The notes under the pieces are model-generated. The model saw only the letters and a list, made by a program, of their open reading frames with translations. It was not told the origin of the DNA and did no database searches. This document shows positions 1-42,984 of a stretch of DNA of 42,984 bases, one piece after another. The position numbers and the translations under genes are program-made. This DNA comes from a virus. Each line of letters opens with the position of its first letter. The stretch's first letter is position 1. The stretch is taken from the IMG/VR virus record IMGVR_UViG_3300009690_000002. One strand, 5' to 3'.

Positions 1-123
1 ATATCATTTCCTGCTTTTCAGAGTTTTACTTTCAACGAAGAACGGGAGCTCGAAGGTTTCAAGTGCCCAGCCCTCCATAATAGCTTCGGCTTCCTTAATA
101 TCTTGTGGGTTATCAGAATTGAT
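1..123. repeat. Terminal exact duplication, copy 1 (identical to 42862-42984). It marks circular closure of a 42,861-bp genome.
   Basis: Direct comparison shows bases 1-123 identical to 42862-42984. On the minus strand the polymerase stop (TGA, 4-6) is followed 1 nt later by the ATG of ORF 42591..42863, so gene order is continuous across the junction. Confidence 0.9.
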
Positions 124-1710
124 CCAGACGGAGTCGTGTACCTGATTACGGATATCGAATCCGACTTTATGGAGTAGAACGCAAGATCTCTTAACAATCT
201 CGAACCCTCCACCCTGGATAACATTATTAAAGGCTTTGTGACATTCTGACTTAAATCTAAAGTGTCGTTCCCTTCCGGTCCACATTTTGACTGTTCCATT
301 GTTTTTCTCCGCTGCGTACTGAGCCTGGTAGGACACTTTCTTAACCTCGGGGTAAGTCTTGTGCCAGTTATCAATGATGGCCGGTGAAGCCTTTTCTCCC
401 TTCTTAATATATTGATCTAGTGGGGACCAACCTCCACCATAACCGATGGTAAAGTTGGCTTGCTTCGCATCATACCGTGGGATACCAATTAAGTCCGCAG
501 TTAATTGATGTACATCCCCGTCCCTCTTAGAGAAGATCTCTAACAAAGCTGGTTGTTTACAATAGACTGCCATTAACCTCATCTCTAGGTTCGAGTAGTC
601 AATCTCCACTAGATCATGTCCATCCTCAGGGAGGAAGATTTCCTTCACCTTAGAGTCCCGTGGCACCTGCTGTAGGTTAGGGTTCTCACATGAGAGACGT
701 CCTGTAACAGTCCCATGTTGCTTGAACGAGGGGTGCAAACGTCCTGATAGATGACCAAGTTTCTGATAAGGCCGGAAATAGCTTGTAAGTTGCTTCTTCA
801 ACTCGCTATACTCTAGTAAGAGACCACAGACCGGGTGGTTAGTGTTCTCTAGGAACCGAGTGTTCACTTGGGGCTTACCAGTTTTAGGAGTATAGGACAA
901 TGGCTTCAAACCATAACCAAAGGGAGGGTCGTCAAACAGTTTGGAACGTAAGAGAGCGGGTTTGGATGGATCAAATCCCAACTCCTGTTCAATCTGTTGC
1001 ATCCTTTCCAATGTCAGGACTTCCAATTCAGCGCAACGATCAACGTCGATAAGAATCCCCTTTGTTTCCATACTAGCTAGGAAGAACATGAAGTCCCTAT
1101 CGACTTCGTTCCAATTAGACCTGTATGGTTCAAATAAGGGATCTAACTTATCATGAAGTTCGTAGGTTGAAAGACAGTCTCCGATAGCATACTTAGCCAT
1201 GACATATGGAGGGATAGAATCCCAATATTCCTTCATAGCTTTAGCTATCTTTGTCTCCTTCTGAGTAACCTTGAGTACCTTAGTAAGATGTTCTAGTGAA
1301 TAGCTAAGCTGATTTTCATCAACCCAATGTGCCATAATCATGGTGTCCTCACAGTTATCACGAGGCACCTGTAGGCCATACCTTTCCATGACCTGGTAAT
1401 CGAATTTGGCATTATGGAAGATCAGCTTAGCTTTCACATCTCGAAATAGGTATTTCGGGATATCTATGTTTGTAGCTTCCTCGCCCATGAAAGGCTTGTG
1501 ACCTACAGGGATGTAACCTGACATCTTAGGGTGGTAGAAAGCTAACCCCAGTAAGTACCTTTCCTCGTAGTAATCTGTACGATTAGTTTCAGTGTCAACT
1601 ACGAGCTTATCAGAAGGCCCTAAAGAATCCAGAAACACCTTTACCTTCTGTAGGTTCTCCGGGGTCTGGATCAACATATCTGGAAAAGGTGAGATTATCT
1701 GATCGGGCAA
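4..1710 (-). CDS. polA: Family A (Pol I / T7-like) DNA polymerase with 3'-5' exonuclease domain
   Basis: 568-aa ORF. It has ExoI 'VVDTET', motif A 'EIDYSNLEMRL', motif B 'KQANFTIGYGGG' and motif C 'QVHDSVW'. The start is ambiguous (1710, ATG 1677 or GTG 1638). It must overlap the upstream helicase stop at 1610, because no start codon lies between 1610 and the ExoI motif. Confidence 0.9.
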   Translation of the reverse strand: MPDQIISPFPDMLIQTPENLQKVKVFLDSLGPSDKLVVDTETNRTDYYEERYLLGLAFYHPKMSGYIPVGHKPFMGEEATNIDIPKYLFRDVKAKLIFHNAKFDYQVMERYGLQVPRDNCEDTMIMAHWVDENQLSYSLEHLTKVLKVTQKETKIAKAMKEYWDSIPPYVMAKYAIGDCLSTYELHDKLDPLFEPYRSNWNEVDRDFMFFLASMETKGILIDVDRCAELEVLTLERMQQIEQELGFDPSKPALLRSKLFDDPPFGYGLKPLSYTPKTGKPQVNTRFLENTNHPVCGLLLEYSELKKQLTSYFRPYQKLGHLSGRLHPSFKQHGTVTGRLSCENPNLQQVPRDSKVKEIFLPEDGHDLVEIDYSNLEMRLMAVYCKQPALLEIFSKRDGDVHQLTADLIGIPRYDAKQANFTIGYGGGWSPLDQYIKKGEKASPAIIDNWHKTYPEVKKVSYQAQYAAEKNNGTVKMWTGRERHFRFKSECHKAFNNVIQGGGFEIVKRSCVLLHKVGFDIRNQVHDSVWINSDNPQDIKEAEAIMEGWALETFELPFFVESKTLKSRK

Positions 1711-3250
1711 TTTTGAAATCCTCTCTAGGAGCGTACCTAGACTTAATGACTAGAAGTTCAATATAGGGTTGTCCATCTTCTTGCCAAAGACAAAGGGCTG
1801 TATCTATGTCTTTATTGAGGACCACGGACCCAAAGTTATCCTCTAGTCTGTTAGGTTTCCTTCCAGTTGAACTGTTCTTTCTAGTGTGAGAAATGATGAT
1901 AAACGCACAGTTATACTTCCTCCTGATACGTTTCATCCACCTCGTTAATTGAAGAACTTCGGTACTTTCTTTCAAATCCCCGTCGGAAAGCTCTAGCAAG
2001 GAATCTATAATTACCAAGCCAGGTTTCGTACGCTCGATCAATTCTTCGTACTGTAGAAGACTTCCTGGCTCGTCCATAATTAAGGAGTTGCTGAACCATG
2101 TCGACAAATCGTCGAAGTCCTGCACCTGCTTTTGCAAGAGAAACTTCAATTCTCTGGTATCCATTTCCAAACTCATAAATAATGTCCGAGTCTTGGAGAC
2201 TTGCTGTCCTAAAAACTCTCCCCCCACAGAAAATGCATGTGCCATCTGAATTGCTAACTGAGTCTTGCCCACACCTGGGGCACCAGTCAAAATAAGCAGG
2301 CCCTGTTGATGGAGCCATTTCTCTATCAGCCATTGTAATTCCTCTGTAAACTCTAAGATGTCCTTCGGTGTATAAACCGAGATATCTTGTTCTTGCTCTA
2401 CTGAGTGGATGGCAATACTCGCCATCTCACTAATTCTGGTCAGCCTATCTGAGCGATCCTCAGGGAATTTACCAATCCTGTCGTTGATATAATTTAAGAG
2501 CGTAGCTACTTGTGAATGATTACACCCTATCTCAGCTAATTCATGTGCAATCTTGTACATGAACTGTGATCTATCACCTACAGCGGGGCTCTCTCGTTCA
2601 ATCTTGAACTTGAGGCTCTTAAGTAGGGGTAGCTGGTTCAGGAGTTTAACGGGATCAAGTAACTGTGCTTCAGTTATCTCAACTTTCTTAGCAGGTACCT
2701 CAGGAGCTTCATCAAAACTAGCAAACGCTTTAGGAACCCCAGGTTCAAAATGTACTAGAGTTACTGGAACTCCACCACGCTTTTGGTTCTGAGACTCCGG
2801 TGGCCTTAAGACTTGGTTTGATTCAGCCCCCGATGAATCTGCCTGTAGGTAATAGGTAAGACGCTTGTTTAAATCTTCTAGGGATGGACCATCTGTAATA
2901 GTTCCTGTTTTCCAGTAAGCATGTACATGAGTTTCACTGGAGGTTTGGACTATGGCATCTGGTTTTGGAAGCCCTTTAAAGTCAATGTGCTCTTTGCCAT
3001 CGAATTCGACCCAAACAACTTGGGACGACTTGAAGGACTCTCGTTTGGAGTTCTTCTTAACAAAGAGTGCTGGCGCTAAGTAGACGTCACCCAGATTAGA
3101 ACTGGATCTGATATGTTTAATCAGACCTTGACGTTCAAGAGGCCAGGAGAAGTAAGCTTCTTCCCATTTATCTGGCTTCTTTACTGGGGAGTAAACAAAT
3201 CCCTGCTGACCCTCAAATAGGAAGTTAACGAATTTCTCTAAATCATCCAT
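1610..3250 (-). CDS. Bifunctional primase-polymerase (AEP-like) / RecA-fold replicative helicase
   Basis: The N-terminal half has 'VVWVEFDGK' and 'SSETHVHAYW' (AEP/prim-pol-like). The C-terminal half has Walker A 'GAPGVGKTQ' and Walker B-like 'LVIIDSL'. The ORF track begins at a TTG (3274) inside a hairpin, so ATG 3248-3250 (MDDLEKF) is preferred. Confidence 0.7.
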   Translation of the reverse strand: MDDLEKFVNFLFEGQQGFVYSPVKKPDKWEEAYFSWPLERQGLIKHIRSSSNLGDVYLAPALFVKKNSKRESFKSSQVVWVEFDGKEHIDFKGLPKPDAIVQTSSETHVHAYWKTGTITDGPSLEDLNKRLTYYLQADSSGAESNQVLRPPESQNQKRGGVPVTLVHFEPGVPKAFASFDEAPEVPAKKVEITEAQLLDPVKLLNQLPLLKSLKFKIERESPAVGDRSQFMYKIAHELAEIGCNHSQVATLLNYINDRIGKFPEDRSDRLTRISEMASIAIHSVEQEQDISVYTPKDILEFTEELQWLIEKWLHQQGLLILTGAPGVGKTQLAIQMAHAFSVGGEFLGQQVSKTRTLFMSLEMDTRELKFLLQKQVQDFDDLSTWFSNSLIMDEPGSLLQYEELIERTKPGLVIIDSLLELSDGDLKESTEVLQLTRWMKRIRRKYNCAFIIISHTRKNSSTGRKPNRLEDNFGSVVLNKDIDTALCLWQEDGQPYIELLVIKSRYAPREDFKIARSDNLTFSRYVDPDPGEPTEGKGVSGFFRAF

Positions 3251-3260
3251 TTGAGCATAA

Positions 3261-3287
3261 CCCCCTGTAGGCAAAGCCTACAGGGGG
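3261..3287. terminator. Perfect 12-bp-stem hairpin (CCCCCTGTAGGC-AAA-GCCTACAGGGGG) between the SSB and primase genes
   Basis: The inverted repeat was read directly. Both arms contain the genome-wide CCTGTAGG word. The T-run lies on the plus-strand side only, so a terminator role for the leftward operon is uncertain. Confidence 0.4.
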
Positions 3288-3296
3288 TTTAATATC

Positions 3297-3674
3297 TCAG
3301 CTATTGGGAGCGTAAGCGGTCAGGTTAGCATATACCTGAGTACCGACTTGAGTGTGCTCTACAGTTGCAACGAAAGTCTTTCCAACGAGATCATCCAGGT
3401 CAAGATCAAAGTCACCTGATGGGAGTTCACCAAAGAGTGCTTCAAGGAACAGCTTAAAGTTCCAGAGAGCATTTTCCTTCATTGAAAAAAAGGTAAGAAC
3501 CTTACGTCCGTTGTTCTCACCTGAATCTACCACAGTGGAGTTAATCACTACATTAGTAGAATCCCCTGCCTTGTTGTCCTTTTCTTTAGCGTCCTCCACA
3601 ATAAAGGTGAAGGTCCCCTCGTCAACAATGGTAAAGCCGGTCTCTACGTTATCAAAGTTCAAGTTAAGGCTCAT
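3297..3674 (-). CDS. Putative ssDNA-binding protein (DUF669-like)
   Basis: About 125 aa. The ATG at 3672-3674 forms an ATGA overlap with the upstream stop. Its position directly after a Sak4-like ATPase is the usual DUF669 + AAA_24 pairing. The sequence resemblance is judged from memory only. Confidence 0.45.
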   Translation of the reverse strand: MSLNLNFDNVETGFTIVDEGTFTFIVEDAKEKDNKAGDSTNVVINSTVVDSGENNGRKVLTFFSMKENALWNFKLFLEALFGELPSGDFDLDLDDLVGKTFVATVEHTQVGTQVYANLTAYAPNS

Positions 3675-4348
3675 TTGTAAATATCCTTCCAAGTTGGGTT
3701 TTCTAGTTTACTCTCAGTGAGAGCTTGTCGGTTCTTTGCTAAGATCTTGCCCTGTGAAGTCACAGTGACTGTTCTCTTTACTTTCCCCGACAAATCTTTG
3801 TCTGCTTCAATGTAGAACACTTCGTTAATCAACCTCTCGATTGATGCACGAACTTCCGGAGGAAGGTGTGGACGTACTTGTAGCAGCTTATTGGTTTCAC
3901 TATCACGTAGCTCTCGCTCATGGGCGATGAGTACTACGTGAGCTTTCACATCAATCAACGTGTAGAACACACGCTTCATAACGTTTGTGATCTTACGGAA
4001 ATCCTGGAACAGAGCTAAATCTGAGTCCCGGTTCTTCTGACCCTTCATATGCTCCATGAGGATAGTCTCATACATGGAACTGATAGAGTCGATCACAATT
4101 GTGTCATACCCTGTAGGTTTCAACACATATTCTAAGATGTTCCCTACGTTCGCTAGCTCTTTCCTATCGGAAATAACTGCAATGTCCGGGTGGGTTTTTC
4201 TTAGAGTTGTTGTCGAGTTCTCAAAGTCTAAAAAGACTGGGTTAGGTGCTCCTGCTGCAAATGTAGTCTTACCTACACCGGGAGAACCATATACCAAGAG
4301 TCTGACATAATCATTCTTCTCCTGAAGTTTCGTAGGTGATAGTGCCAT
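3671..4348 (-). CDS. Sak4-like RecA-fold recombination ATPase (AAA_24 type)
   Basis: Walker A 'YGSPGVGKTT' and Walker B 'DTIVIDSIS'. Size is 225 aa, in a recombination-module context. Confidence 0.7.
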   Translation of the reverse strand: MALSPTKLQEKNDYVRLLVYGSPGVGKTTFAAGAPNPVFLDFENSTTTLRKTHPDIAVISDRKELANVGNILEYVLKPTGYDTIVIDSISSMYETILMEHMKGQKNRDSDLALFQDFRKITNVMKRVFYTLIDVKAHVVLIAHERELRDSETNKLLQVRPHLPPEVRASIERLINEVFYIEADKDLSGKVKRTVTVTSQGKILAKNRQALTESKLENPTWKDIYK

Positions 4349-4511
4349 CAGTTACCCTTATGGAAAATTTGCATGATCCGGTAGTTTCCTCAAAGTATCC
4401 GTTGACAACATCAATGGACGCTGACGTTCCATCGGAGCTTCGGAATGTTACTTTCGTTAACCTCTTTACTGTCATCGGGGTTCTCGCTTTGAACCGTGTT
4501 TTCTGATTCAT
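4311..4511 (-). CDS. Hypothetical protein (66 aa)
   Basis: ORF only. It overlaps the 3' tail of the Cas4-like gene by 101 nt and the Sak4 start by 38 nt. The start is uncertain. Confidence 0.35.
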   Translation of the reverse strand: MNQKTRFKARTPMTVKRLTKVTFRSSDGTSASIDVVNGYFEETTGSCKFSIRVTDGTITYETSGEE

Positions 4512-5355
4512 ACCTTGTCCTAATAACTACCCAGGGATCAATGCCCTTTAGCTCCAACCTACAGATGGGGAGGTAAGGACAATTACCACAGGAGGACAGG
4601 TTCTGTAAAGTTCCAGGTTCTCTTTGCTTGTTATCAATCTCCTTTAGGTAGTTCCACCAATTTTCATAAAAGGTGGCTGATCGTTTGCTCCTGTAGGTCT
4701 TAAATAGTTCCGTTTTGACCGGGTTCTTAGGAGGCTGTGAATGGAGAAAGTTAGTTTCAAGCTCAGCTACTTCCCCAGTTTCCAGATACCAAAGGGTTCC
4801 ATAAGTGTTAAGTTGGAAAGAAGTATCTGTACTATGTTGGCTATGGGTTGTAGGATTTCCACCAGTCTTGTGATCCCGGATCACCCTAACCTTGGATTTT
4901 GTATCCCAATAGATTAAGTCAGCAAATCCGTGAATTAACCTACCATTGTACTCTCTCTGTAGGTGGTACTCCACGAGTAGATCAGTGATATCCATATCAA
5001 TCATTGGGGATCGGTTTATCACGAACCCGATGAAAGTACGGATGCACTCATCATAGAAGATAGGGTCTACTTCATCCCCCGCTTCCTCAAAGTCTTGGGC
5101 TACTCTTGCCTTGAGAATATCCAGCAATTCAGTGTCACCAATTTCAAATTCATTGAGAAGTGAATAGTAGAAGTGACAGAGCTCATGGATATAGGAACCC
5201 TTATCCATTGAACGAGTGGATGGTTGTTTGGGCCTCATTTCGCGACCGTAGCTGTATTCCCATTTACGCTCGCATTGCAGAAACACACTAGCCTGGGTAG
5301 GACTAAGTGTTCCCGGAACCTCAAAGGGAGGCAAAGAAGGATTCGGATACATCAA
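4411..5355 (-). CDS. Cas4/RecB-like PD-(D/E)XK exonuclease with 4-Cys cluster
   Basis: 'FADLIYWD...VIRDHKTGG' fits the D...(D/E)xK motif. An N-terminal Cys ('LQCERKW') plus C-terminal 'CGNCPYLPIC' gives the Cas4/AddB-type Fe-S ligand pattern. Confidence 0.75.
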   Translation of the reverse strand: MMYPNPSLPPFEVPGTLSPTQASVFLQCERKWEYSYGREMRPKQPSTRSMDKGSYIHELCHFYYSLLNEFEIGDTELLDILKARVAQDFEEAGDEVDPIFYDECIRTFIGFVINRSPMIDMDITDLLVEYHLQREYNGRLIHGFADLIYWDTKSKVRVIRDHKTGGNPTTHSQHSTDTSFQLNTYGTLWYLETGEVAELETNFLHSQPPKNPVKTELFKTYRSKRSATFYENWWNYLKEIDNKQREPGTLQNLSSCGNCPYLPICRLELKGIDPWVVIRTRYESENTVQSENPDDSKEVNESNIPKLRWNVSVH

Positions 5356-5539
5356 ACCATACCTCCTTACCTACAGGGAGGAAATCAATGATGTCATCCT
5401 GATAAAGGAGAATCCCTAAGAACGTCTTGTTGAAATCAAAAGCTCTCATTGGCTTCCAATTAGTGTTCTCAGTAATCCATCTACAGGTTCCAATACTGTT
5501 TTTATTGGTCAGACTGGGTGTAACGCGTGTAGGTGTCAA
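5321..5539 (-). CDS. Hypothetical protein (72 aa)
   Basis: ORF in the operon orientation. No recognisable motif. Confidence 0.45.
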   Translation of the reverse strand: MTPTRVTPSLTNKNSIGTCRWITENTNWKPMRAFDFNKTFLGILLYQDDIIDFLPVGKEVWFDVSESFFASL

Positions 5540-5735: not shown

Positions 5736-6070
5736 AACACCATCTCCTTAATCTCTTGCTCCAGAATCATCCTCATGCAACGTCCACATGGTTTGGAAGG
5801 TTTCACCCTACCATCCTGGTCGATTCTTGCAATGTATAGGGTTGCTCCTGATCGCATATGTCTTGGCATCAAATTGATACAGGACTTTTCAGCATGGGTT
5901 GTTAAATCAGTATAAGGAACACCAAATGATGAGTTCCGGTGAGTGTTGAAAGTTCCAGTGATAATTGTAGACTTATACACTGAAACACAACCTACACGTA
6001 CTCTGTGCTCCCCAAACTCTGCCAACTCCAATGCTTTCTGATAGAAATACTCGTCCTTCTTAGTTATCAT
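5657..6070 (-). CDS. dCMP/cytidine deaminase-family zinc enzyme
   Basis: 'THAEKSCI' (H-A-E) and 'PCGRCMRMI' (PCxxC) are the zinc-binding signature of CMP/dCMP deaminases. 137 aa. Confidence 0.75.
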   Translation of the reverse strand: MITKKDEYFYQKALELAEFGEHRVRVGCVSVYKSTIITGTFNTHRNSSFGVPYTDLTTHAEKSCINLMPRHMRSGATLYIARIDQDGRVKPSKPCGRCMRMILEQEIKEMVFWDENLRKVRPMRVTRQHTGLLLQRK

Positions 6071-7661: not shown

Positions 7662-8021
7662 TCACCACAGCCGGGAGGTATCTATCTGTGATTCTCCAAC
7701 TGCGGTTTGTTTATCTTGCATCTTATGACAGGAAACACATCTCCATTCTAGGAATTCAACCTCATTGATTGTTAGATCTTTAGTTACATGATCTGCCTGT
7801 AGGCTCGAAGTCAGTACCCTATTTTCCTCGGGCCAGATTTCCTCAAACCAGGAAGGAGCATCTTTAGGAGGCTCCATAGATGTCTTTCCGCAATCAACGT
7901 GACCTACAGGGGAGTCATAACCTGCACATTTAAAGGGGACATACGCTTCGAACAAAGTTTTCCTCGCTCGACGTCTACCTGTCGATCGAACATCTTTCAT
8001 TGGTTTACGTTGTACCATCAT
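7662..8021 (-). CDS. HNH endonuclease
   Basis: 'CAGY...DCGK', then 'LQADHVTKD...N...WRCVSCHK'. This is the classical Cys-box plus H-N-H arrangement. Confidence 0.7.
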   Translation of the reverse strand: MMVQRKPMKDVRSTGRRRARKTLFEAYVPFKCAGYDSPVGHVDCGKTSMEPPKDAPSWFEEIWPEENRVLTSSLQADHVTKDLTINEVEFLEWRCVSCHKMQDKQTAVGESQIDTSRLW

Positions 8022-8296
8022 ACTTCAGCAATCACTCTAATAATTGAGAAAGGGCCGCGGAAGAAAGAGGCGTAGTAATGTCCAGTCGTCCCATTATCCC
8101 AGAGAATCTCATAGACCGGTTCCTTCACCCGCTTTCGTGGCACGTCTGATAGACAGATAACAACTCCTAAACTTGGGAGGATCTCCCTATCGTTATAGAT
8201 GACTCTATCTCCAGCTTCGGGTTCCTTATCTAAATAAGTAATCCCCCGCTCCTGTAGGTCGGCCCATTCTTTCCTTCTAATCTCGAGCAGGTTCAT
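8018..8296 (-). CDS. Hypothetical protein (92 aa)
   Basis: ORF with 4-nt overlaps to both neighbours, suggesting translational coupling. Confidence 0.55.
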   Translation of the reverse strand: MNLLEIRRKEWADLQERGITYLDKEPEAGDRVIYNDREILPSLGVVICLSDVPRKRVKEPVYEILWDNGTTGHYYASFFRGPFSIIRVIAEV

Positions 8297-8478: not shown

Positions 8479-8914
8479 AAAAGTCCTTCCACATATTACG
8501 TAGCCTTACAGGCAAGGGGTTTTCGGGGTATGGTACACAAAATCCGTATGCGCTCAGGGTATGGCATTCCCCTAACCAAGGGCACGCCGACCCGCAGGCG
8601 TGAGAATGGAGCACAATGAGAGCATCCTGGTGTGAGAGGTAGGGTATAGCCTCCCGTGCTGAGGGGGGTCCATAAAGGTGAACAATAGTAGATGGTAGAG
8701 TTTTCTCTAAACTAATGTCCGAGGTGTCATAAAACCCTACATACTGAGACCAGAATGGGACATATGGGTATGGACCGATTCTTAGTCTCGGTTCTCTATA
8801 TGGATCACGAGGGATAGTCCTAACATGACCTACAGGGGCCTTCGTTATCTTCTTCTGGATAGGTTCAGATAGTAGGCTTTTGATATCTCTTTGCAGGGAG
8901 TCCCAATCTTTCAC
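8402..8914 (-). CDS. Hypothetical Cys/His-rich protein (170 aa)
   Basis: GTG start preceded by 'GAAAGGAGGTGA'. Contains 'HSHACGSACPWLGECH'. Confidence 0.55.
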   Translation of the reverse strand: MKDWDSLQRDIKSLLSEPIQKKITKAPVGHVRTIPRDPYREPRLRIGPYPYVPFWSQYVGFYDTSDISLEKTLPSTIVHLYGPPSAREAIPYLSHQDALIVLHSHACGSACPWLGECHTLSAYGFCVPYPENPLPVRLRNMWKDFYEELRSTGYLEPLEKEVRDQGVPSQ

Positions 8915-8959: not shown

Positions 8960-9322
8960 TCAGTACGTCGAGTTGATCTTTTCTCGTTCCCATCCGATTA
9001 CTACTCCTTCTCCCAACTTAGTATAACCTACAGGGTAGTCTCTAAAGATAGCCATAAGAATCTCAATGCTCAGATGGTTCTCAAATTGACGTTGACAACG
9101 GACTAAACATCTGATAGCTGGTAAGTGGGCATCATCGTAGAGGAAAACGTTTCCCGAACCTACAGCGATGCCCTTTCTTGTTTTCCTGTTCCTATCTCTA
9201 TAAACCTTCTCCACTTGCTTAACTTCTGATCTAGCTGGGATAACTTTAAGACGAGTCCACAGGTGAACTTGTCTAGCAGTAGCTCCAGTTAGTTCACATA
9301 CCTTAGAAGAACTAATCCACAT
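8960..9322 (-). CDS. MerR/excisionase-type HTH DNA-binding protein
   Basis: 'KVCELTGATARQVHLWTRLKVIPA' fits the helix-turn-helix_17 / Xis-like pattern. The preferred ATG at 9320-9322 overlaps the SNF2 stop by 1 nt. Confidence 0.55.
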   Translation of the reverse strand: MWISSSKVCELTGATARQVHLWTRLKVIPARSEVKQVEKVYRDRNRKTRKGIAVGSGNVFLYDDAHLPAIRCLVRCQRQFENHLSIEILMAIFRDYPVGYTKLGEGVVIGWEREKINSTY

Positions 9323-11067
9323 TACAGGATATCCCTCAACATTTCTTTCCAAACACCGGCTGGGCGAATTTGATCGCCCTTCATAATACCTTCGAACATC
9401 TCTGCCTTTTCATCAGAGATCATAGCAACGAAATCATCTACTGACTTCGGAGCATGAATGAAATAGATAGTAACAGGTTGATTAGCCCCCATCCGATAGA
9501 TACGTGCATTACATTGTTCATCTCTTGCTGGGTTCCACCAACGATCAAGATGGATACCTACAGAAGCACCACCTGGCCATCTATCTGGGTTCTTCTGTAG
9601 GTTCAAACCTTCACCCATACTAGAGTTGATACAGAGAACGTCGATCTTTCCTTGCTGGAAATCAATCTCCGCTGATCCCATATCTGCCTTAGTCTTACCA
9701 GTAATAAACCTACAGGTAAGGCCCAATTTGTTGCAGCGCTTCTGGATTTCCTCAAAAACACTGTTGAAGTTGCAGAACACTACTACCTGATCGTTATGTT
9801 CCTCAATGATATCCATAGCCTCATCTACCTTAGCAGAATCTGGCACATTTACCTCAAGGACCTTATCATTACCCCACTCATCCTTCACAATTTGTGAGAA
9901 CACAGGCCACACAGAAATCTGTCGGAGCCTAGTGAGTTGTGCAATGATAGCTGTAGCTGTAAGTGCAGCATCTTCCTGCTCATCCAACCAAATGTAGAAG
10001 TTATCCTTCATTTGATCGTAAGCTTTCTGTTGCTGTGGGTTGTATTCTACAGTCTGCTCTACGATAGTAAGCTCAGGCAATTGAATCCCGACTTCATTAC
10101 GGGTTCGGCGTACCATCCTATCTGCGAGACATACATTTAGAATACGCTCAGTATCAATCTTCCCACCGAACTCTTGATAAGCATTAAAGGCGCTCTCAAA
10201 AGAACGCAGGTTATCAAACTTACTCGGATCGAAGATATGAAGATAGGCCCACAATTCAGCGACCCTATTGACCATTGGAGTACCGGAAAGCATGTAGATG
10301 AAATCTGGTCCCATATCTCGGATATATTCTTTGATAGCAACCCAAAGCCCTGTAGGTCCAGAGGGATTAGCACCACCCTTAAGTTTATGAACCTCATCCA
10401 TTACCACCATACCGAACCTTGTGTTCTTTAGTTCGGGAGTAGTCCTCATAGTTTCATAATTGGTAATCAAGACAATACCAGCCATCTTACTAATGAGGTC
10501 AATCATAAATCCTCGCTCTTTCTTAGGAGAACGACCGAGGATTTCGATGATGGGGATTTCAGACCAACGTTGGAATTCTCGCTTAGTTCCACCAGTTTCT
10601 ACGATGGAAGACTTAGAGAGCCACAGCACTTTCTCATCAGGATGTTCTGCCAGGTACAAATCACACATAGCAATTGCTTGGAGAGTTTTACCCAAACCCA
10701 TATCGTCAGCGTTGAAGAACCCACTATGACCTACAGAAAGGTTATGAAAGGCTTGTGCCGTGCTTTCTTGTTGGTAAGGACGGAGGTGCTCCCAAGTTAC
10801 AGGAGTAAGTTCTTTGATCCTATGGATCGTGTCCTCAATAGCCTTGAGCTTATCCTGTTCTTCTTGCAGTTGCTTTTCAAGCTCACGCTGTTTAGCTTCA
10901 GCAAGAAGCTTCTCTCTAATTTCCCGCTTCTCCTGATCAGCTTTCACAGCCTGCTCAGAAATAGCCCTCGTAAGTTCCGCCGCCCTATCCAGAATCTGTT
11001 GACGCTCATCAATAAGGTCCTGCAGAATCTTTGCTTCGGGAGTCTCAGTAAATTCTACTCTAAACAT
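9322..11067 (-). CDS. SNF2/Rad54-family DNA-dependent ATPase (helicase)
   Basis: Motif I 'DDMGLGKTLQ', motif II 'VVMDEVHKLK', motif VI-like 'QCNARIYRMGANQ'. ATG at 11065-11067 is preferred over the TTG at 11085. Confidence 0.85.
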   Translation of the reverse strand: MFRVEFTETPEAKILQDLIDERQQILDRAAELTRAISEQAVKADQEKREIREKLLAEAKQRELEKQLQEEQDKLKAIEDTIHRIKELTPVTWEHLRPYQQESTAQAFHNLSVGHSGFFNADDMGLGKTLQAIAMCDLYLAEHPDEKVLWLSKSSIVETGGTKREFQRWSEIPIIEILGRSPKKERGFMIDLISKMAGIVLITNYETMRTTPELKNTRFGMVVMDEVHKLKGGANPSGPTGLWVAIKEYIRDMGPDFIYMLSGTPMVNRVAELWAYLHIFDPSKFDNLRSFESAFNAYQEFGGKIDTERILNVCLADRMVRRTRNEVGIQLPELTIVEQTVEYNPQQQKAYDQMKDNFYIWLDEQEDAALTATAIIAQLTRLRQISVWPVFSQIVKDEWGNDKVLEVNVPDSAKVDEAMDIIEEHNDQVVVFCNFNSVFEEIQKRCNKLGLTCRFITGKTKADMGSAEIDFQQGKIDVLCINSSMGEGLNLQKNPDRWPGGASVGIHLDRWWNPARDEQCNARIYRMGANQPVTIYFIHAPKSVDDFVAMISDEKAEMFEGIMKGDQIRPAGVWKEMLRDIL

Positions 11068-11440
11068 TGGATGCCACGCTTTCAATCAATGACCTACAGG
11101 TGGAACAGGTATGATGATCTATACCTACAGAAAGGTACCCAATCTTAAGAGCTCGCTCTAAGAGAGCTGCATCACTTTCATGTAGATCACCCCCTTGAAC
11201 ATTAAGATCCTTAGCTAGATAAGGATAAAGCATGGGTGGAACATGATCCCCAGGGTAGTAGTACCTGCGGTAAAGTATCTGAAATTGGAGAACCCAATCC
11301 GTATCGGTATCTAGATGTGGGAAGAAATAATCCTCAATAGGACCATCCTGGCATGGGGCTACGAAATTAATAAGCTCAGGCCTATTAGCTTCCAATAGTG
11401 CTAGACAAGTAACAAGGAAAGGATCATTAGAGAGTGACAT
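11060..11440 (-). CDS. Hypothetical protein (~126 aa)
   Basis: ORF. ATG at 11438-11440 (MSLSNDPF) is preferred and lies 14 nt inside the upstream gene. Confidence 0.5.
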   Translation of the reverse strand: MSLSNDPFLVTCLALLEANRPELINFVAPCQDGPIEDYFFPHLDTDTDWVLQFQILYRRYYYPGDHVPPMLYPYLAKDLNVQGGDLHESDAALLERALKIGYLSVGIDHHTCSTCRSLIESVASNV

Positions 11441-12131
11441 TGATAATCTCCACTTCCACTTGTTGGTTATCAACAGTAACCATGTTGTGTCCTGTTTCTT
11501 CCATCTTTTCTACAAGATCCATATGACTCTTGAAATCATCTTTCTTCCAGCCGAGCATTTCTGCCACGATTCTATAGTTGTGGTAAACATCTGATCCGAT
11601 CCTGTAGGCCGGATATGTTGTGCGCTCACTTCCACCAAAATTACCGGAGATACTCTTGAGTGGAGCATAAGTCTTATCGTGAATCATCTTAGCGAATTCA
11701 CGGAAACTCTCAAAGCCTTCCCGCAGTTTAGTGTACCTATCAAAGGCCAACTTCTTGTCTGCCATGTTGGGGGAACGAAGAATCATATCTTCCCGAGCTC
11801 GAGAATGAAAGCCCACTTCTGAATCCTTGATAAACTCTTTCAAGAGTTGAATCATGTGATATTGGACGTTCAATTCTTCTTCTTCCTCCATTTCATAAAG
11901 AGTATCGAGGAAACTTGAGAGGATCTCCTTAGCCCTATCTTTTGCGACCGCATCATGTGCTGCGGTTTCTGTTGCTACTTGCCGTGCCTCACTAATTGAT
12001 CCCTTACTCTTGAGGACAGTCTGCAATTCATCTGCTACATGGTAGACTTTCTTTGAGAAAGCCTCTGGATCATCCAACATTGTTAGATAATCAATTTCAA
12101 GATCAGTAAAGATACTACGGTGGTTGCTCAT
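11427..12131 (-). CDS. Hypothetical protein (234 aa)
   Basis: Long ORF in the operon orientation. No motif recognised. Confidence 0.6.
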   Translation of the reverse strand: MSNHRSIFTDLEIDYLTMLDDPEAFSKKVYHVADELQTVLKSKGSISEARQVATETAAHDAVAKDRAKEILSSFLDTLYEMEEEEELNVQYHMIQLLKEFIKDSEVGFHSRAREDMILRSPNMADKKLAFDRYTKLREGFESFREFAKMIHDKTYAPLKSISGNFGGSERTTYPAYRIGSDVYHNYRIVAEMLGWKKDDFKSHMDLVEKMEETGHNMVTVDNQQVEVEIINVTL

Positions 12132-12147: not shown

Positions 12148-12303
12148 TCAGTCGTCGGAAAGTTCTGGTCCTACAGGGGGGTATAGATTAAAGATCTTTA
12201 GTACAGTTGCTTCATCTGTACTAACATGCTCAGCAATCTGTTTGAACGTAAGATCGTTGTAATGAAACAAACGCCTACAACGGATAATTTCTTCCCTAGT
12301 CAT
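12148..12303 (-). CDS. Small HTH protein (51 aa; not in the ORF track)
   Basis: My translation is MTREEIIRCRRLFHYNDLTFKQIAEHVSTDEATVLKIFNLYPPVGPELSDD. 'LTFKQIAEHVSTDEATVLK' is HTH-like. Its ATG forms an ATGA overlap with the upstream small ORF. Confidence 0.5.
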   Translation of the reverse strand: MTREEIIRCRRLFHYNDLTFKQIAEHVSTDEATVLKIFNLYPPVGPELSDD

Positions 12304-16521: not shown

Positions 16522-16580
16522 CACCCCCATTTTTACCCTGAATAAGAAGCCCCTCGCCCACCCCCTGTAGGTAAAAAGTC

Positions 16581-25577: not shown

Positions 25578-25600
25578 TAAAGTAGATAGCTAAACAAATA

Positions 25601-30763: not shown

Positions 30764-32022
30764 TGCCTGTAACTGTAGGGGATCTCGTACAGAGGATTCG
30801 CACGGATATTGGAGATCAGGGAAATATCTACACTAAGGATAATTTTCTAATCGATTGGATCAATGAGGCTGTCAGGGATATTTTCCGTGACACCTCATTA
30901 GGTCGTTTTAATGAAAAGTATTTCCCAATTGGTAAATTTCAGGGTCGGCCACAAACCCTTGCTTGGTTTGATGATTTTTCTTCCTATACTCCAGGGGGAG
31001 CCTTAGGAATTGAAGCTTCTGGTATCTGGATTGGGACTGACAAAGTTGATATTGATTTATATGAGACGGCAGTTATTTCAACTGGGGCTGGAAGCTTTGC
31101 TTCTAGGAAAGTGACTACTCCATATCATTCTTTTTCTGTGGATATTACTAGAGAGGTCACTGGATCTAGTGATGTTTATATCTTCTGTGGAGCTAATCTT
31201 GCCCCACCTAATCTTAGGCCAGTGACTGGGCTTTTCTTGTTTGTAACCGGATCTAATAGTGGGGGGGAGTTTACTGTCGAACTTCGTCATTTGGTTGGGG
31301 GTGTTTTCACAACTCTAGAGACATCTACAGGGGTTCCTATCTCCACTACTGGGACACTCTATCTAGAAATTCATGGTCGGGAGGTATATGCTAAGGTTGA
31401 TAATGATTTGATCTTTCAACATCAGATCACTGAGGAACAATCTAAGGTTCTAGACTTAGGTGTGGGATTCGGATCAGAACAGTCGGCTGATTTTCCTCTC
31501 TTTGATAATGCTGCAGCATATAAAACAGAACCAATGTTTGATGTGTACATTGATGAAATCACTTTCCCCAGAGAAGTGATGCAAATTCATAGCGTGCATA
31601 ATGGTGTTTCAATTTTAGAGGAAGTTCAGTATGACACTATTCTTCAGCAGCAGGGTCCAGCTTGGATTAGACAAACTGGGGAGTCTCCTTTGTATTATTG
31701 GAGAATTTATGACCGTGGGGTTACTAAAATTAAATTTACTCCCCCCCCTGTAGGTTCTAATGGTCTCTATATTTCCTACACCTACACCCCTGAGCAATTT
31801 ACTACATTATCACAATACCTTCGTGATATCCTTCCAGAATTTTACTCAGATGACATTGTTCGTTTCGCAGTGATGCGAGCACATGAAAGGAATAAGGATT
31901 TCCGAGCCTCTGAGAAAGCTCAGGAACATTATGCCTATAGTGTATATGATCGGGTAGATAAGAGCCGAGTTCTAGATGATTCATTCCAAGTAATTACACC
32001 TGATGAATACGATTACCTCTGA
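30763..32022 (+). CDS. Virion structural protein (possible adaptor or tail tubular protein)
   Basis: 419 aa, with TAATG/TGATG coupling to its neighbours. The role is a positional inference. Confidence 0.5.
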   Translation: MPVTVGDLVQRIRTDIGDQGNIYTKDNFLIDWINEAVRDIFRDTSLGRFNEKYFPIGKFQGRPQTLAWFDDFSSYTPGGALGIEASGIWIGTDKVDIDLYETAVISTGAGSFASRKVTTPYHSFSVDITREVTGSSDVYIFCGANLAPPNLRPVTGLFLFVTGSNSGGEFTVELRHLVGGVFTTLETSTGVPISTTGTLYLEIHGREVYAKVDNDLIFQHQITEEQSKVLDLGVGFGSEQSADFPLFDNAAAYKTEPMFDVYIDEITFPREVMQIHSVHNGVSILEEVQYDTILQQQGPAWIRQTGESPLYYWRIYDRGVTKIKFTPPPVGSNGLYISYTYTPEQFTTLSQYLRDILPEFYSDDIVRFAVMRAHERNKDFRASEKAQEHYAYSVYDRVDKSRVLDDSFQVITPDEYDYL

Positions 32023-33758
32023 TGACTGCCTATAGCGAAGAAAACATCAAATTAGACTTTAACAAGGGAATGTACACGGCTGACTTACACTCAGCAATCC
32101 CTAATGGGTATGCACAGAGGCTGTTTAACTTAATTGCCACTGGGACCTCCCTAGAGAATAGGAAAGGTCTCAAATCAACCAGTGTTTTTCAAAGTGAGCC
32201 CCCATCAGTCTCTCTTAATATAAGTCCAACCTTATATTATGCAGGTGGGGAATCTGGTAACAGTAATAACCCTATTCTTTTTGGAGAGGGAACGACTGTT
32301 GATGATAACTATCTCTTGATGGTTAGAGAGAGAGATCCAGATAATTTTACACAGGGAGATTGGTCAAATGGTACTACATATGTTCCTTTAACATCAGGTG
32401 GTAGTTATGCTTCTCTTATTGGAGCATTGAACTACAATGATCGAACATATGTGTTTACTACTGCAAAAATTTATAAGGTAACTGGGATCAACTGGAATGC
32501 TAATACTAGCACCAAGACGGAAATAACTGGACCTACAGGGCTGTTTTCTGAACCTATCCATTTTATGGATCGTTTGTGGGTAGCTGGGGGTAACACTCTG
32601 TACTATACAGATGCTATCTCATCTCCAGGGGCTTACCCAGAAACTTGGAATGTCGGTACCAATTTTATTAAAGTGATGGGTCGTCTTGGCGGAGGGAAGA
32701 TTTATAAATTAGTACCACTTGGTTCTAGAATCTATATTTTTACAAGTATTGGTCTTTTTGCTCTAACTATTACTGGTAGTCCAAGCGATTGGTACCTTCG
32801 TCCTATTGATGAGAAGGCTTGTGTAACGAGTAGAAACTGTGCTGTGGAAGTAGATGGGGTCATCTACTATGTGTCAAAATATGGTGTCTATGCTCTAATG
32901 GGAGGTGAGCGGGCTAAGTTGTCTGATGCAATTGGAAATTACTTTGTTACAGGTCCTATGTCAGATAACTTATATTCCAGTGATCATGAAGGGTTTGATT
33001 ACAGTCTCCATTTCATGGATAATGGATTATTGCTAAACATCTCTCACTATTTCTTTGATGAGGATTCCTATCCTTTTATTCAATATGGTAAAGATAAATC
33101 AGTAGTATTTTATGCCCGTCTTAATAGTCTGGCATGGACACTGTGGGACTTCTCTTCAGGTTCTGAGGGTATCACATTAGTTGGTGGCATTGCAGATAAC
33201 ATTTCTACTTATGTAGATAATGTTCCTGTTACTTTCCTTAATATTCTTCATACTCAGAGGACTATGGGGGACCCTGGTGAACCTCACTACTGTGAGATGT
33301 TTCAATATACTGGAACTCAAGATAGCTATATATATGATTCCCTTGGGGACCCGCTAGAGGGTCCTGTGTCTTATTATTCTCAGACCGATGACATTAAGTG
33401 TCATGTAACATCAGCCATTGTTCCTGCTGGTTCCCCCATAGAGTATAAGATTCTCAAGTACGCCTATCTTAATGTATATATGTCTAATTACATGACATAT
33501 TCTGATCCTGACTCTTGGAACTATTATTGGATTGCATGGCCGGATCAACATGGCCCCCACAATGATGAAATTCGTGAGTTGACCATAGAAAATGGAGATG
33601 CCTACAATTTCAATATGGTTAAACTAAATGCGGGATTTACTTTCCGAGTTCTGTATATTGGTTTGGAATTTTCCACGGCTTCTCACTCTCTGTTCAAAAT
33701 TAAAGAGCTCAATATGCTAATTCATGATCTTAGGGATGGTCCCTATGGCGTACAATAA
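32022..33758 (+). CDS. Virion structural protein (possible tail tubular/nozzle protein)
   Basis: 578 aa. The role is a positional inference. Confidence 0.5.
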   Translation: MTAYSEENIKLDFNKGMYTADLHSAIPNGYAQRLFNLIATGTSLENRKGLKSTSVFQSEPPSVSLNISPTLYYAGGESGNSNNPILFGEGTTVDDNYLLMVRERDPDNFTQGDWSNGTTYVPLTSGGSYASLIGALNYNDRTYVFTTAKIYKVTGINWNANTSTKTEITGPTGLFSEPIHFMDRLWVAGGNTLYYTDAISSPGAYPETWNVGTNFIKVMGRLGGGKIYKLVPLGSRIYIFTSIGLFALTITGSPSDWYLRPIDEKACVTSRNCAVEVDGVIYYVSKYGVYALMGGERAKLSDAIGNYFVTGPMSDNLYSSDHEGFDYSLHFMDNGLLLNISHYFFDEDSYPFIQYGKDKSVVFYARLNSLAWTLWDFSSGSEGITLVGGIADNISTYVDNVPVTFLNILHTQRTMGDPGEPHYCEMFQYTGTQDSYIYDSLGDPLEGPVSYYSQTDDIKCHVTSAIVPAGSPIEYKILKYAYLNVYMSNYMTYSDPDSWNYYWIAWPDQHGPHNDEIRELTIENGDAYNFNMVKLNAGFTFRVLYIGLEFSTASHSLFKIKELNMLIHDLRDGPYGVQ

Positions 33759-34296
33759 TAGTTCTTTCAATGATGTAGTTAAGGGATTAACACATGAGGA
33801 CCCTGACAGACATTTGATTGGGGAATCATTGCCAGCCCCTAAAAGTCCGCCCTTAAGTGGCGGGGCAGCTGCTGTAGGTGAGTCTCCTTTTCCAGCTAGA
33901 GCTGATCATGTTCATGCTCCATATTATGGACCGACATCTGTGTCTATTGGAACAATTGCATCTGCATCTGGTCACTTACCTCTCTACAGAAATAGTTCTA
34001 CAGGTGCTATTGTAGTTCTTAGTTCCAGGGAAGAACTTAAAGCATATATTGATGATCTCCCTGTAGGTATCATTAATGGGCTTCGACCTGTTAAGTTTAA
34101 GCCTAAAGAAGGTGGTCCTTGGCAATATGGGTTTATTGCTCAAGAAGTAGCTCAAATTGATACATCTCTTGGTGTATTCAATGAAAAAGGTGAGCCCATC
34201 TTCTATAATGAGCAGGGACTGTTAGCTGTTGCAGTAGCCGAGATTCAAAACCTTAAAGAACGAGTCAGATACCTAGAATCCAAACTTGCCCTGTAG
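33745..34296 (+). CDS. Short tail-fibre protein with C-terminal intramolecular-chaperone (Peptidase_S74-like) domain
   Basis: 'ARADHVHA', then 'GLRPVKFKPKEG..WQYGFIAQEVAQID...LLAVAVAEIQNLKERVRYLE', which fits the S74 chaperone-of-endosialidase domain. The stop codon is the TAG inside a CCTGTAGG word. Confidence 0.65.
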   Translation: MAYNNSSFNDVVKGLTHEDPDRHLIGESLPAPKSPPLSGGAAAVGESPFPARADHVHAPYYGPTSVSIGTIASASGHLPLYRNSSTGAIVVLSSREELKAYIDDLPVGIINGLRPVKFKPKEGGPWQYGFIAQEVAQIDTSLGVFNEKGEPIFYNEQGLLAVAVAEIQNLKERVRYLESKLAL

Positions 34297-34320
34297 GTCT
34301 AAATAAGGTACTCTTTTAGC

Positions 34321-34500: not shown

Positions 34501-34871
34501 GTCTAGGAGCTATTCAACTTAATTCTTTGTTTCGTAAGTACACTGGTCAACTTTCAGATATTTCTATGGCTGAGGCAGACCAAACTCGAAACTACCAATC
34601 TCAGATTAGAGATCTAGATACATCTCAACGTGTAGGCCAGAAGAAATTATCAGAGCGCAAGGCTACTCAAGGCATGGCTAACTCTGGAACTGCTCTAGAG
34701 GAACGTACTAATTTGGACAAGTCCTTTATTGATGCTCGCAGTGACCTACAGGGAAACTATAACAGTAACTTAGCCAAATTAGCTAAGCAACGATTGGATG
34801 CTAAAGCTGACTATGATGAGAACGTTGCTCTAGTAAATCTAACAGAACTTCTTAAGAAAGGTGGGCAGTGA
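34497..34871 (+). CDS. Hypothetical virion protein (124 aa)
   Basis: ORF, translationally coupled. Confidence 0.5.
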   Translation: MSLGAIQLNSLFRKYTGQLSDISMAEADQTRNYQSQIRDLDTSQRVGQKKLSERKATQGMANSGTALEERTNLDKSFIDARSDLQGNYNSNLAKLAKQRLDAKADYDENVALVNLTELLKKGGQ

Positions 34872-36434: not shown

Positions 36435-39400
36435 TGGTAAAGACTTCGGAAGCTCAGAAGAAAAACGTTGAGCGGTTTAATGCTATTTTGAACCAAACCC
36501 TTGGTGCTACGGTTAGTCCAAGGGTTAGGAACTACTCTGTCCCTGTTCAAAGTGATGTTGGTCTCACTAAAGAAGCTTCCAGGTTTCAGCAGAACTCTCG
36601 AGAAACTAAAGCCCTTCTTAAGGAATTAACTAAAGAGAGAACTTCTTCTAAGACTAAGAATGCAAGCAGTAACGGCCTAAAGAAAGATGTTACTACTAAT
36701 CTCAAAGAGATTGATAATACTAAGGACTATCAGGCTGCTCTCAAGAAGTTAATTGGTGAGGGTAAGAGTCCAGATCGAGCTCTCTTAGAAATGGCCCTTG
36801 GAAAACCAAGTTGGTTCAAGAGGAACGTAGTTAATCGTACCGGTAACCTTCTTGGTCGTGCTGGGGATTTAGCTTCCCGTGGTATGTACGCCCTCTCTGA
36901 GGGTGCTCTACAAATGACCCAAGCTTTAGATCAGGGACAACAACCTTGGGAAGTTTTTGATGATTTAGCACATGGTGCTGGTCAAGGACTTTGGGGTACA
37001 AAGAAAACTGGCTTTGGTGATTTTGTTAACTACATGAATGATCCTGATGTAGAACGTCATCGTACCGGTTGGGGAGAAGCTTTTCTATGGACTAATCTCG
37101 GCGCTCCCTTTATGGCTCTTAATGAAGGGAACAAGAAACTCCGTGAAAAATATGGCAGGGACAACCTTGCTTCCCACATTTTTAATGTTGCTGCTGGTGC
37201 TTCTGGGGAGCTTTTCCTTGATCCTGCTAACTGGATTGGTGTAGGTTTAGCTACTAGTACCTCAGATGCTGTACGTGCATCATCTAAAATTGATGATGTT
37301 GTTCGTGCTTTTCGTTCAGCTGAGAATGTTGCTGACCCTATTACTAAAGCAGAACGTAAAGCTGCACGTGCTTGGCTAAAAACCTCCGAAGGGATTACTT
37401 ACCAACGTAACAGTTGGTATATGAAAATCGCTCAAGATCAGGTTGATAACTCTGAACTACTTTCCCGCCTATCTAACAGACCGGGTGGGTATAAGACAGC
37501 TACTGGAGCCCGTGCAGGCGGATCTAGAACCCCTGCCCAAGTTATTGCTGAGAGTATGGCCGATGTAATGGATAATGGTATCCTTACTCCAGAAGGAACC
37601 TCCCGTTCAGTAAACAATCATATTATCCGTGAAGCATCTGCAGCTAATGCAGGTTCTGTTGCCTATGAAATGGCTACTAAAACCTTTGAGAAGAACTATG
37701 AGAAGATTCTCAATGATGCAATGGAGTTGGACTCCAAAGCTTATCAAAAATTGGTGAATAGTGGGGACCCACTATGGGAAGCCTTTGAGGAGTATATTGA
37801 CGGTAACCTCCATAAGTTAGCTGATGAAACAAGTGGTTATACTCGTCACCAACTTCTTGAAGAAGCACACAGGGCTGCTATAGATAAAGTTGTTACGCCA
37901 GAAATCAATAAGGTTATGGACAACATCCGTGGAGAAATCACGGCTGGTATGTACAACTCTCCTGCTATCCGTGTAGGTAACACAAAAGTTGAAATTCGTC
38001 CTCTGGGGGAAGCCTATGATAAGTTCCGCACTAAGACTGGTTTCAACAGAATCGTCAATCCCTTAAGCCTAGATAGTCAAATTTCCCAAGCTGGAACTCA
38101 GATGGTTCGTAAGGCTCGTGCAAGAAGTGCAGAGCGGTTCCATAAATTCCTCTATGGGTATAAAGATGCTAAGGGAAATGTTTTTCGTGGTGCTCGTGAG
38201 GTAGCTGGTCAATATGATGCTGCTGCACGAACTCAGATTAGACAGTTCATTAACAACGATCTAACTGGTATGGCACTTCCAGGAAATCATCTAGATGACG
38301 GAATCCAATTTGTTAGGGATGAGTTAAAAGAAATCTATAATCTAGAGATTGCTTCTGGTGCTCGTTCAGTAGATAGTAAGTTTGTTAAAAACTACACTCC
38401 TGTAGAGTGGAAAGAAGCTCTACTAGATCGTACCAATATTAACCATAAGCGTAAAGTCTTTACCGAACAACGGAAGCTTGATATTGCCAACACTGGTAAT
38501 GTCATTTCAGATGTTGATATTGCTCTTCAAGCGAAACTAAAGCCTGTTGAGGATATCTTTGAGGCCCTGTATGTTCGTCGACTCAAAGCAGAGCACCAGA
38601 TTGCTCGTGCAGAAGTTACAGAGGCTTTCTTCCGTAATCTTGGTGTGTCCGGCAAAAATGTCTCACCAACTCTTGCAAGAGGTCAAGGTTGGGAGAAGAT
38701 CGCTAGCCTAGGTTCTAATGGTAAAGTTAGGGAGATGCTCACCAGGGATGGAAAGCATACCTATAAGATCAATGAGAACTTAAGGAAGTTTATCCAGAAA
38801 TCAGGAGAAGATCTCTATCTTCCCAAGGATGTTGCAGAAGCTTTCTATAACTTCCAACGTCTAGCAGATACCCAGAACCTTGAGGAACTGGGTGACTTTA
38901 TGAAGATCTTTGATAAGGTACTTCGTAACTTCAAAGCATCAGCTACTATGCCCTATCCTGGGTTCCATGTTAAGAACATGGTAGGTGACATCTTTGTTGG
39001 ATGGATGGATGGAGTTCGTGTAGGTGACTATGATAGGTTCTTCAAGGTAGCTGCTGCCAATAATGAAACGCTACCTACAGTGGCTAAAAGTAAAACCACT
39101 TACTTCCAACTAGGGAATGGTAATCAATTAGATTATCATGTAATGAACCGTCTCTATAAGCAGAACGCTGCTTCTGGTGGTTTCTCCACTATGGATACTT
39201 CCCCTTCTGCACGCACCGCTGTAGGTCGTAGGGTTAACAAAGCTACTAACCGTACAGGAGAGTTTATGCGTAACCTGTCGGAAGGTCGTGAAGATCTAGG
39301 TCGTAAGGTTCACTTCGTACATGCAATTGAGGATGAATTAAATGTACGTAAGCTGAGGAACGTTAAACTGGATGAAGCTTTCTGGGACACACCTACAGGG

Positions 39401-40219
39401 AAGAAGGTTATTGACAACGCTACTTTCCGGGTTGACAAATGGAAGTTTGATTATGGTGCATTAACGGCGACCGAGCGTACAATTATGCGTCGAGTCATGC
39501 CCTTCTACACCTTCATGAGGAAGTCACTCCCAGCTATGTTAGAAGGGTTCCTCATGAACCCAGATATGTTGGGCAAGCAGCATAGGTTGTTTTCATCTCA
39601 AGATGGGGAGTTAGGCCCGCAGTTTTATCCCTGGGAGCGAGAACTAGGTTTCGCTTCTTGGGGGAACACCATTATTCCAAAGAGTATCTTCCCGATTGAT
39701 ACTATGCAGGACCTATTGAATGACCCCACTAATCCAGGTGCCACCTCAAAGGTCTTTGTAGACCAACTGAACCCACTGCTTAAAATTCTATATGAATTAG
39801 GAACTAATCATAATTCCTTCACTGGCAGAGATCTCTTTAAGGAGCAGGATCGTACTACTGAAAACCAGTTTAATTATGCCCTTAGGAACATCCTCCCCCC
39901 TGTAGGTACAATTGAGGATCTTGTTACTAAAGGTAAGCTCTCAGATCGTATGGTTCTCGGTCTAGGTATCAAGTCCTATGGTGAGGAAACTAGGCTTCGT
40001 AACTTACAGTATGGGTTTGGTTCTACTCAAAAGAGGATCAACCAAGCTTCTGAAAGATTACTAGAACCACTAGGTTACCGTATGTTTGTATCCACCAGGA
40101 ACTCTGGTACATCAATTGTAGTTAAAGAAATTGATGGCAAAGAGCTCTACCGTGGGGACCTACAGGGGGCTCTAACTGTTGTTCAGAATATCCTTGGAAC
40201 AGTGAGGGCAAATAATTGA
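36434..40219 (+). CDS. Very large internal virion / DNA-ejection protein (1261 aa)
   Basis: Last and largest gene of the structural operon. Its size and position are analogous to podovirus internal core proteins. No catalytic motif was recognised. Confidence 0.55.
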   Translation: MVKTSEAQKKNVERFNAILNQTLGATVSPRVRNYSVPVQSDVGLTKEASRFQQNSRETKALLKELTKERTSSKTKNASSNGLKKDVTTNLKEIDNTKDYQAALKKLIGEGKSPDRALLEMALGKPSWFKRNVVNRTGNLLGRAGDLASRGMYALSEGALQMTQALDQGQQPWEVFDDLAHGAGQGLWGTKKTGFGDFVNYMNDPDVERHRTGWGEAFLWTNLGAPFMALNEGNKKLREKYGRDNLASHIFNVAAGASGELFLDPANWIGVGLATSTSDAVRASSKIDDVVRAFRSAENVADPITKAERKAARAWLKTSEGITYQRNSWYMKIAQDQVDNSELLSRLSNRPGGYKTATGARAGGSRTPAQVIAESMADVMDNGILTPEGTSRSVNNHIIREASAANAGSVAYEMATKTFEKNYEKILNDAMELDSKAYQKLVNSGDPLWEAFEEYIDGNLHKLADETSGYTRHQLLEEAHRAAIDKVVTPEINKVMDNIRGEITAGMYNSPAIRVGNTKVEIRPLGEAYDKFRTKTGFNRIVNPLSLDSQISQAGTQMVRKARARSAERFHKFLYGYKDAKGNVFRGAREVAGQYDAAARTQIRQFINNDLTGMALPGNHLDDGIQFVRDELKEIYNLEIASGARSVDSKFVKNYTPVEWKEALLDRTNINHKRKVFTEQRKLDIANTGNVISDVDIALQAKLKPVEDIFEALYVRRLKAEHQIARAEVTEAFFRNLGVSGKNVSPTLARGQGWEKIASLGSNGKVREMLTRDGKHTYKINENLRKFIQKSGEDLYLPKDVAEAFYNFQRLADTQNLEELGDFMKIFDKVLRNFKASATMPYPGFHVKNMVGDIFVGWMDGVRVGDYDRFFKVAAANNETLPTVAKSKTTYFQLGNGNQLDYHVMNRLYKQNAASGGFSTMDTSPSARTAVGRRVNKATNRTGEFMRNLSEGREDLGRKVHFVHAIEDELNVRKLRNVKLDEAFWDTPTGKKVIDNATFRVDKWKFDYGALTATERTIMRRVMPFYTFMRKSLPAMLEGFLMNPDMLGKQHRLFSSQDGELGPQFYPWERELGFASWGNTIIPKSIFPIDTMQDLLNDPTNPGATSKVFVDQLNPLLKILYELGTNHNSFTGRDLFKEQDRTTENQFNYALRNILPPVGTIEDLVTKGKLSDRMVLGLGIKSYGEETRLRNLQYGFGSTQKRINQASERLLEPLGYRMFVSTRNSGTSIVVKEIDGKELYRGDLQGALTVVQNILGTVRANN

Positions 40220-40645: not shown

Positions 40646-40649
40646 GGGA

Positions 40650-41206: not shown

Positions 41207-41468
41207 GTTCACAAAGTAACTCAATTTTCCCGATTACCCGTGGTGCTACCATGTTGTTGTAATCGAAGTGACCACTCCGAGCTTTGTCCGGTCGGATCAA
41301 AAAGTCCTCACAAACTACGAGGTCCGCACTGTTGATTAGCTCTTTTAAGGGTTCAATAGACTCATTCTTAGCTACACCAAGCTCCCCTGTAGGTTTGATC
41401 TTCCGGTCGATCACCTCAATCATACAGTAACCTGTATTCTTCCCAGGGTCTAAACCTAGCACTCTCAT
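41025..41468 (-). CDS. ruvC: RuvC-like Holliday junction resolvase
   Basis: 'MRVLGLDPGKNTGY' (first catalytic Asp), 'VVCEDF' and 'WQDAFAHACY' fit the RNase H-fold resolvase pattern. 147 aa. Confidence 0.7.
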   Translation of the reverse strand: MRVLGLDPGKNTGYCMIEVIDRKIKPTGELGVAKNESIEPLKELINSADLVVCEDFLIRPDKARSGHFDYNNMVAPRVIGKIELLCELTGTRLEKQPASVKPPAYGFANMKYSPGKKGTHWQDAFAHACYFAVRNLNALPVTGSQKA

Positions 41469-41989: not shown

Positions 41990-42090
41990 TTGAACAACTC
42001 CTTAATATAAATACCTACAGTGGTGGCCACAGCAAGTAGGAAAATAACAAAACCAACAGCTAGGGGACCGGTAAAGAAGAAATCAATCAT
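41986..42090 (-). CDS. Small membrane peptide (34 aa; not in the ORF track)
   Basis: My translation is MIDFFFTGPLAVGFVIFLLAVATTVGIYIKELFK. Confidence 0.35.
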   Translation of the reverse strand: MIDFFFTGPLAVGFVIFLLAVATTVGIYIKELFK

Positions 42091-42361: not shown

Positions 42362-42594
42362 AACCCCCTAATTGTCTTTTCCCGTTCTGTTTTCAATTCT
42401 AGAACACCCTTCTCCATTGATGTAGCTATCCACATTGGGGTACTAAGATCCTTCTCTGTAAAAATGAGATCAACCTTGCTCAGAATTGAAAACTCACAGT
42501 AGTAGAGACCGTTTTCCTCATCCATTCTCATGTCAATCTTGATGGGTAGATTGAAATTATCCTGAACAATCTTGTTCAACCTAGTGAGGTTCAT
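42358..42594 (-). CDS. Hypothetical protein (78 aa)
   Basis: ORF with 4-nt overlaps on both sides. Confidence 0.5.
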   Translation of the reverse strand: MNLTRLNKIVQDNFNLPIKIDMRMDEENGLYYCEFSILSKVDLIFTEKDLSTPMWIATSMEKGVLELKTEREKTIRGL

Positions 42595-42863
42595 TCCTCT
42601 ACCTTTTCATATGTAGCTTCAAAGATATCTGGCTTACAAGGGTAGAACTCTCCTTGAACACCTTTGATGATCCAGTCTCCAGGGGATACCCAAAGTGGCC
42701 CTTCAAGGGTGTTAATGTAGAAAAGATGATTAGTTTGTTCTAGAGTTAACTCACCGAAGGGGAGAACTCCCCCACACCAATTCATAATTAAACAATCTTC
42801 ATCATAATCTTGACCAGTTTGACGAGCCTCGATTACTACTGGCTTTTTCCTGTAGGTTCCCAT
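42591..42863 (-). CDS. Hypothetical conserved small phage protein (90 aa)
   Basis: 'YRKKPVVIEARQ...' is an N-terminus seen in many small phage proteins. The ATG lies 1 nt after the polymerase stop across the circular junction. Confidence 0.55.
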   Translation of the reverse strand: MGTYRKKPVVIEARQTGQDYDEDCLIMNWCGGVLPFGELTLEQTNHLFYINTLEGPLWVSPGDWIIKGVQGEFYPCKPDIFEATYEKVEE

Positions 42864-42984
42864 ATCATTTCCTGCTTTTCAGAGTTTTACTTTCAACGAA
42901 GAACGGGAGCTCGAAGGTTTCAAGTGCCCAGCCCTCCATAATAGCTTCGGCTTCCTTAATATCTTGTGGGTTATCAGAATTGAT
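42862..42984. repeat. Terminal exact duplication, copy 2
   Basis: Identical to bases 1-123. Confidence 0.9.

Follow-up and report, generated by a model that had tools for sequence, protein, structure and literature searches.

A hyper-abundant word in a phage genome and its possible relation to a RepB'-like primase

The genome and its replication module

The window, by which we mean the whole 42,984-nt stretch of DNA analysed, begins and ends with the same 123 bases, and the unique genome is therefore 42,861 bp; this terminal identity causes no word copy to be counted twice. The nearest cultured relatives fit an actinobacterial host, in keeping with an earlier note on this DNA. A replication module lies on the minus strand and includes a Family A DNA polymerase (polA, 4..1710), a primase-helicase (prim-hel, 1610..3274), a DUF669 protein (3297..3692, a weak Pfam match), an AAA_24/Sak4-like ATPase (3671..4348), a Cas4-like PD-(D/E)XK exonuclease (4411..5355) and an SNF2-family helicase (9322..11085). 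The 554-aa prim-hel product fuses a RepB'-like AEP primase, a helix bundle (residues about 208-295) and a RepA/DnaB-like helicase (AAA_25); its probable ATG lies at about 3250, and its gene overlaps polA by ~100 nt. A WhiB-like match is present at about 40838-41320 on the plus strand; a WhiB protein had also been named in the earlier note.

Abundance and placement of the word

An exact search of the window finds 42 copies of CCTGTAGG (27 plus, 15 minus), 66 of the core CTGTAGG (39 plus, 27 minus), 54 of CTGTAGGT and 27 of CCCTGTAGGT. The consensus is ccCCTGTAGGT, and the strict 8-10-base word occurs about once per kilobase of phage genome. The earlier note had listed at least 41 copies of CCTGTAGG and about 65 cores; all 41 coordinates are right, and a minus-strand copy at 26866 had been overlooked. 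Base composition predicts 0.93 copies (the note had estimated about 1), Markov orders 1-3 predict 1.5-2.2, and 100 dinucleotide-preserving shuffles give 1.58 (maximum 6). Codon-order shuffles yield 8.0 +/- 1.0 and 200 shuffles preserving protein and per-gene codon usage yield 12.2 +/- 2.1 (maximum 19, exceeded by the observed 42), although these coding shuffles left non-coding DNA intact and about 8 of the copies in each shuffle sit there. Only the maximal-order Markov expectation, 36.8, comes near the observed count, because sub-words of CCTGTAGG are themselves enriched. The hyper-abundance claimed for the word is real.

Of the 66 core copies, 56 fall within genes. At 28 of the 66, comprising 16 full 8-mers and 12 shorter sites, the sense reading is x-Val-Gly. 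The full 8-mers read as Pro-Val-Gly (ORFs in brackets) are, on the minus strand, CCCTGTAGGT at 1502..1509 (polA), 5370..5377 (5321-5539), 7903..7910 (7662-8021), 8829..8836 (8402-8914) and 9027..9034 (8960-9352), and CCCTGTAGGa at 12170..12177 (12148-12321); and, on the plus strand, CCCTGTAGGT at 17238..17245 (16581-17423), 18311..18318 (18233-18424), 20882..20889 (portal; kept in L001 and L004), 29985..29992 (29505-30176), 30422..30429 (30284-30763), 31747..31754 (30763-32022), 34060..34067 (33724-34296) and 39899..39906 (the 1261-aa protein gene), CCCTGTAGGc at 19236..19243 (TerL) and tCCTGTAGGt at 25410..25417 (25221-25577). The shorter x-Val-Gly sites are, on the minus strand, cgCTGTAGGt at 2577..2583 (prim-hel) and 9159..9165 (8960-9352) and ttCTGTAGGt at 9557..9563 and 10730..10736 (both SNF2 helicase) and 11124..11130 (11060-11473); and, on the plus strand, tgCTGTAGGt at 18043..18049 (17976-18233) and 33872..33878 (33724-34296), ggCTGTAGGt at 19324..19330 (TerL; kept in L001), ttCTGTAGGg at 26852..26858 (26041-27090), cgCTGTAGGt at 28166..28172 (27091-29508) and 39219..39225 (1261-aa protein gene), and aaCTGTAGGg at 30773..30779 (30763-32022). 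Sense Cys-Arg, noted earlier for a single copy, occurs at three minus-strand core sites: atCTGTAGGt at 4558..4564 (Cas4-like exonuclease) and aCCTGTAGGt at 9709..9716 (SNF2 helicase) and 11093..11100 (11060-11473).

Antisense cores read as Leu-Gln 12 times, Pro-Thr 10 times and Tyr-Arg 3 times, the three readings that had been described. Leu-Gln copies on the plus strand are tgCTGTAGGt at 670..676 and aCCTGTAGGc at 1368..1375 (both polA), gCCTGTAGGt at 2842..2849 (prim-hel), ctCTGTAGGt at 4957..4963 (Cas4-like exonuclease), gCCTGTAGGc at 7796..7803 (7662-8021), tCCTGTAGGt at 8251..8258 (8018-8296) and ttCTGTAGGt at 9595..9601 (SNF2 helicase); those on the minus strand are ctCTGTAGGt at 18292..18298 (18233-18424), ctCTGTAGGa at 30526..30532 (30284-30763) and CCCTGTAGGT at 34745..34752 (34497-34871) and 40159..40166 (1261-aa protein gene). 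Pro-Thr copies are CCCTGTAGGT at 4110..4117 (AAA_24 gene), 10349..10356 (SNF2 helicase) and 41386..41393 (41025-41468) on the plus strand, and, on the minus strand, tgCTGTAGGa at 20234..20240 (19937-20317), CCCTGTAGGa at 26866..26873 (26041-27090; the overlooked copy), caCTGTAGGt at 29916..29922 (29505-30176) and 39074..39080 (1261-aa protein gene), and CCCTGTAGGT at 32532..32539 (32022-33758) and 39392..39399 (1261-aa protein gene). Tyr-Arg is read from plus-strand tCCTGTAGGt at 4690..4697 (Cas4-like exonuclease) and 42849..42856 (42591-42863) and tCCTGTAGGc at 11601..11608 (11427-12131), and ttCTGTAGGt at 1648..1654 (plus) is antisense in the polA/prim-hel overlap. The frame that would give TAG is avoided, as had been stated, its sole use being the real stop codon of ORF 33724-34296 (34294-34296, within plus-strand CCCTGTAGGT at 34290..34297).

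Ten copies lie in non-coding DNA or at the edge of a gene. They include plus-strand CCCTGTAGGT at 16564..16571 (10 nt upstream of ORF 16581-17423) and 23436..23443 (after the portal gene; kept in L001 and L004), caCTGTAGGt at 23632..23638 (plus) and 42014..42020 (minus), and a non-coding tandem pair of plus-strand CCCTGTAGGT at 14394..14401 and 14416..14423, 22 bp apart with repeat unit ACACCCTGTAGGTTA. Inverted word pairs form two strong hairpins. One, with a 19-bp stem at 25600-25652, carries CCCTGTAGGT in its 5' arm (25605..25612, plus) and 3' arm (25640..25647, minus) and runs into UUUUU as a plus-strand intrinsic terminator (25600..25657; dG -34.8 kcal/mol, z -5.4), which agrees with the word-built terminator stems described before. 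The other (3259..3289, minus; 14-bp stem, dG -31.5 kcal/mol, z -6.9) lies between the DUF669 and prim-hel genes and pairs CCCTGTAGGc at 3264..3271 (plus), a short way upstream of the ATG at which prim-hel probably starts, with CCCTGTAGGc at 3277..3284 (minus). A minor variant, GTGTAGG, in which G replaces C before TGTAGG, is found on the plus strand at 5527..5533, 16897..16903, 34630..34636, 37239..37245, 37971..37977 and 39018..39024, and on the minus strand at 4272..4278, 5991..5997, 14258..14264, 22132..22138, 26703..26709, 27625..27631, 31775..31781 and 31781..31787.

The word is a signal selected at the DNA level and not a protein motif, a view already held in the earlier note and upheld here by the codon-preserving shuffles and the mixed reading frames. 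Core sites on the late arm are 22:11 sense to antisense, the 2:1 bias reported before, and those on the early arm show no sense bias (17:16).

A word family and its possible reader

CCTGTAGG belongs, as one dialect among several, to a family of hyper-abundant words that have T-GT at their centre. Arthrobacter phage Jasmine uses CTGTGGG, Microbacterium phage Shocker CCTGTAAAGG, Microbacterium phages Koji and Dave GTGTGGCC, and Muddy together with Gordonia, Serratia and Pseudomonas phages GGTGTGG. T-GT words recur in many otherwise unrelated phages with a RepB'-like primase-helicase module. The family tracks this replication module, which is marked by the fusion of a RepB'-type primase with a RepA/DnaB-like helicase, and it does so in podo-, sipho- and myoviruses alike and in three phyla of hosts. 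Close relatives keep word sites above background and in deeper relatives the sites turn over; spacing of the sites is random, with 60-80% on one strand genome-wide. Neither the wider family nor its tie to the module was part of the earlier reading.

That reading had instead likened the density of the word to host signature words (HIP1, Chi or uptake sequences) or to stoperator-like sites, and our comparisons support neither. Jasmine's word is not enriched in four unrelated phages that were isolated on the same host strain as Jasmine, nor was enrichment found in Arthrobacter and Microbacteriaceae plasmids, and a scan for the word's inverted-pair hairpin in one genome for each of 185,579 species returned no word-saturated locus. 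Dialects also differ within one host genus (Shocker versus Koji and Dave), while the TGTGG core is common to phages of Actinobacteria, Proteobacteria and Clostridia; HIP1 is further excluded by the word's lack of palindromic symmetry. Against stoperator-like sites stand the 56 of 66 intragenic copies, an early-arm orientation independent of transcription, and the lack of any integrase or repressor detected among the ORFs scanned.

The explanation that we favour, at somewhat less than even odds, is that the copies are dispersed start signals for the RepB'-like primase, in which case prim-hel would be the reader of the word and would begin DNA synthesis at these sites. The Cas4-like exonuclease is a candidate rival reader, and the word may instead have a Chi-like role. 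The word had been called no known phage feature, and we found no published description of it in the literature; a function as primase start signal, if true, would be previously undescribed. A T adjoining GTG is the known start site of both RepB' and the pRN1 primase. In two phages the primase of a homologous module is of the DnaG type, and both carry CTGCGG-type words instead.

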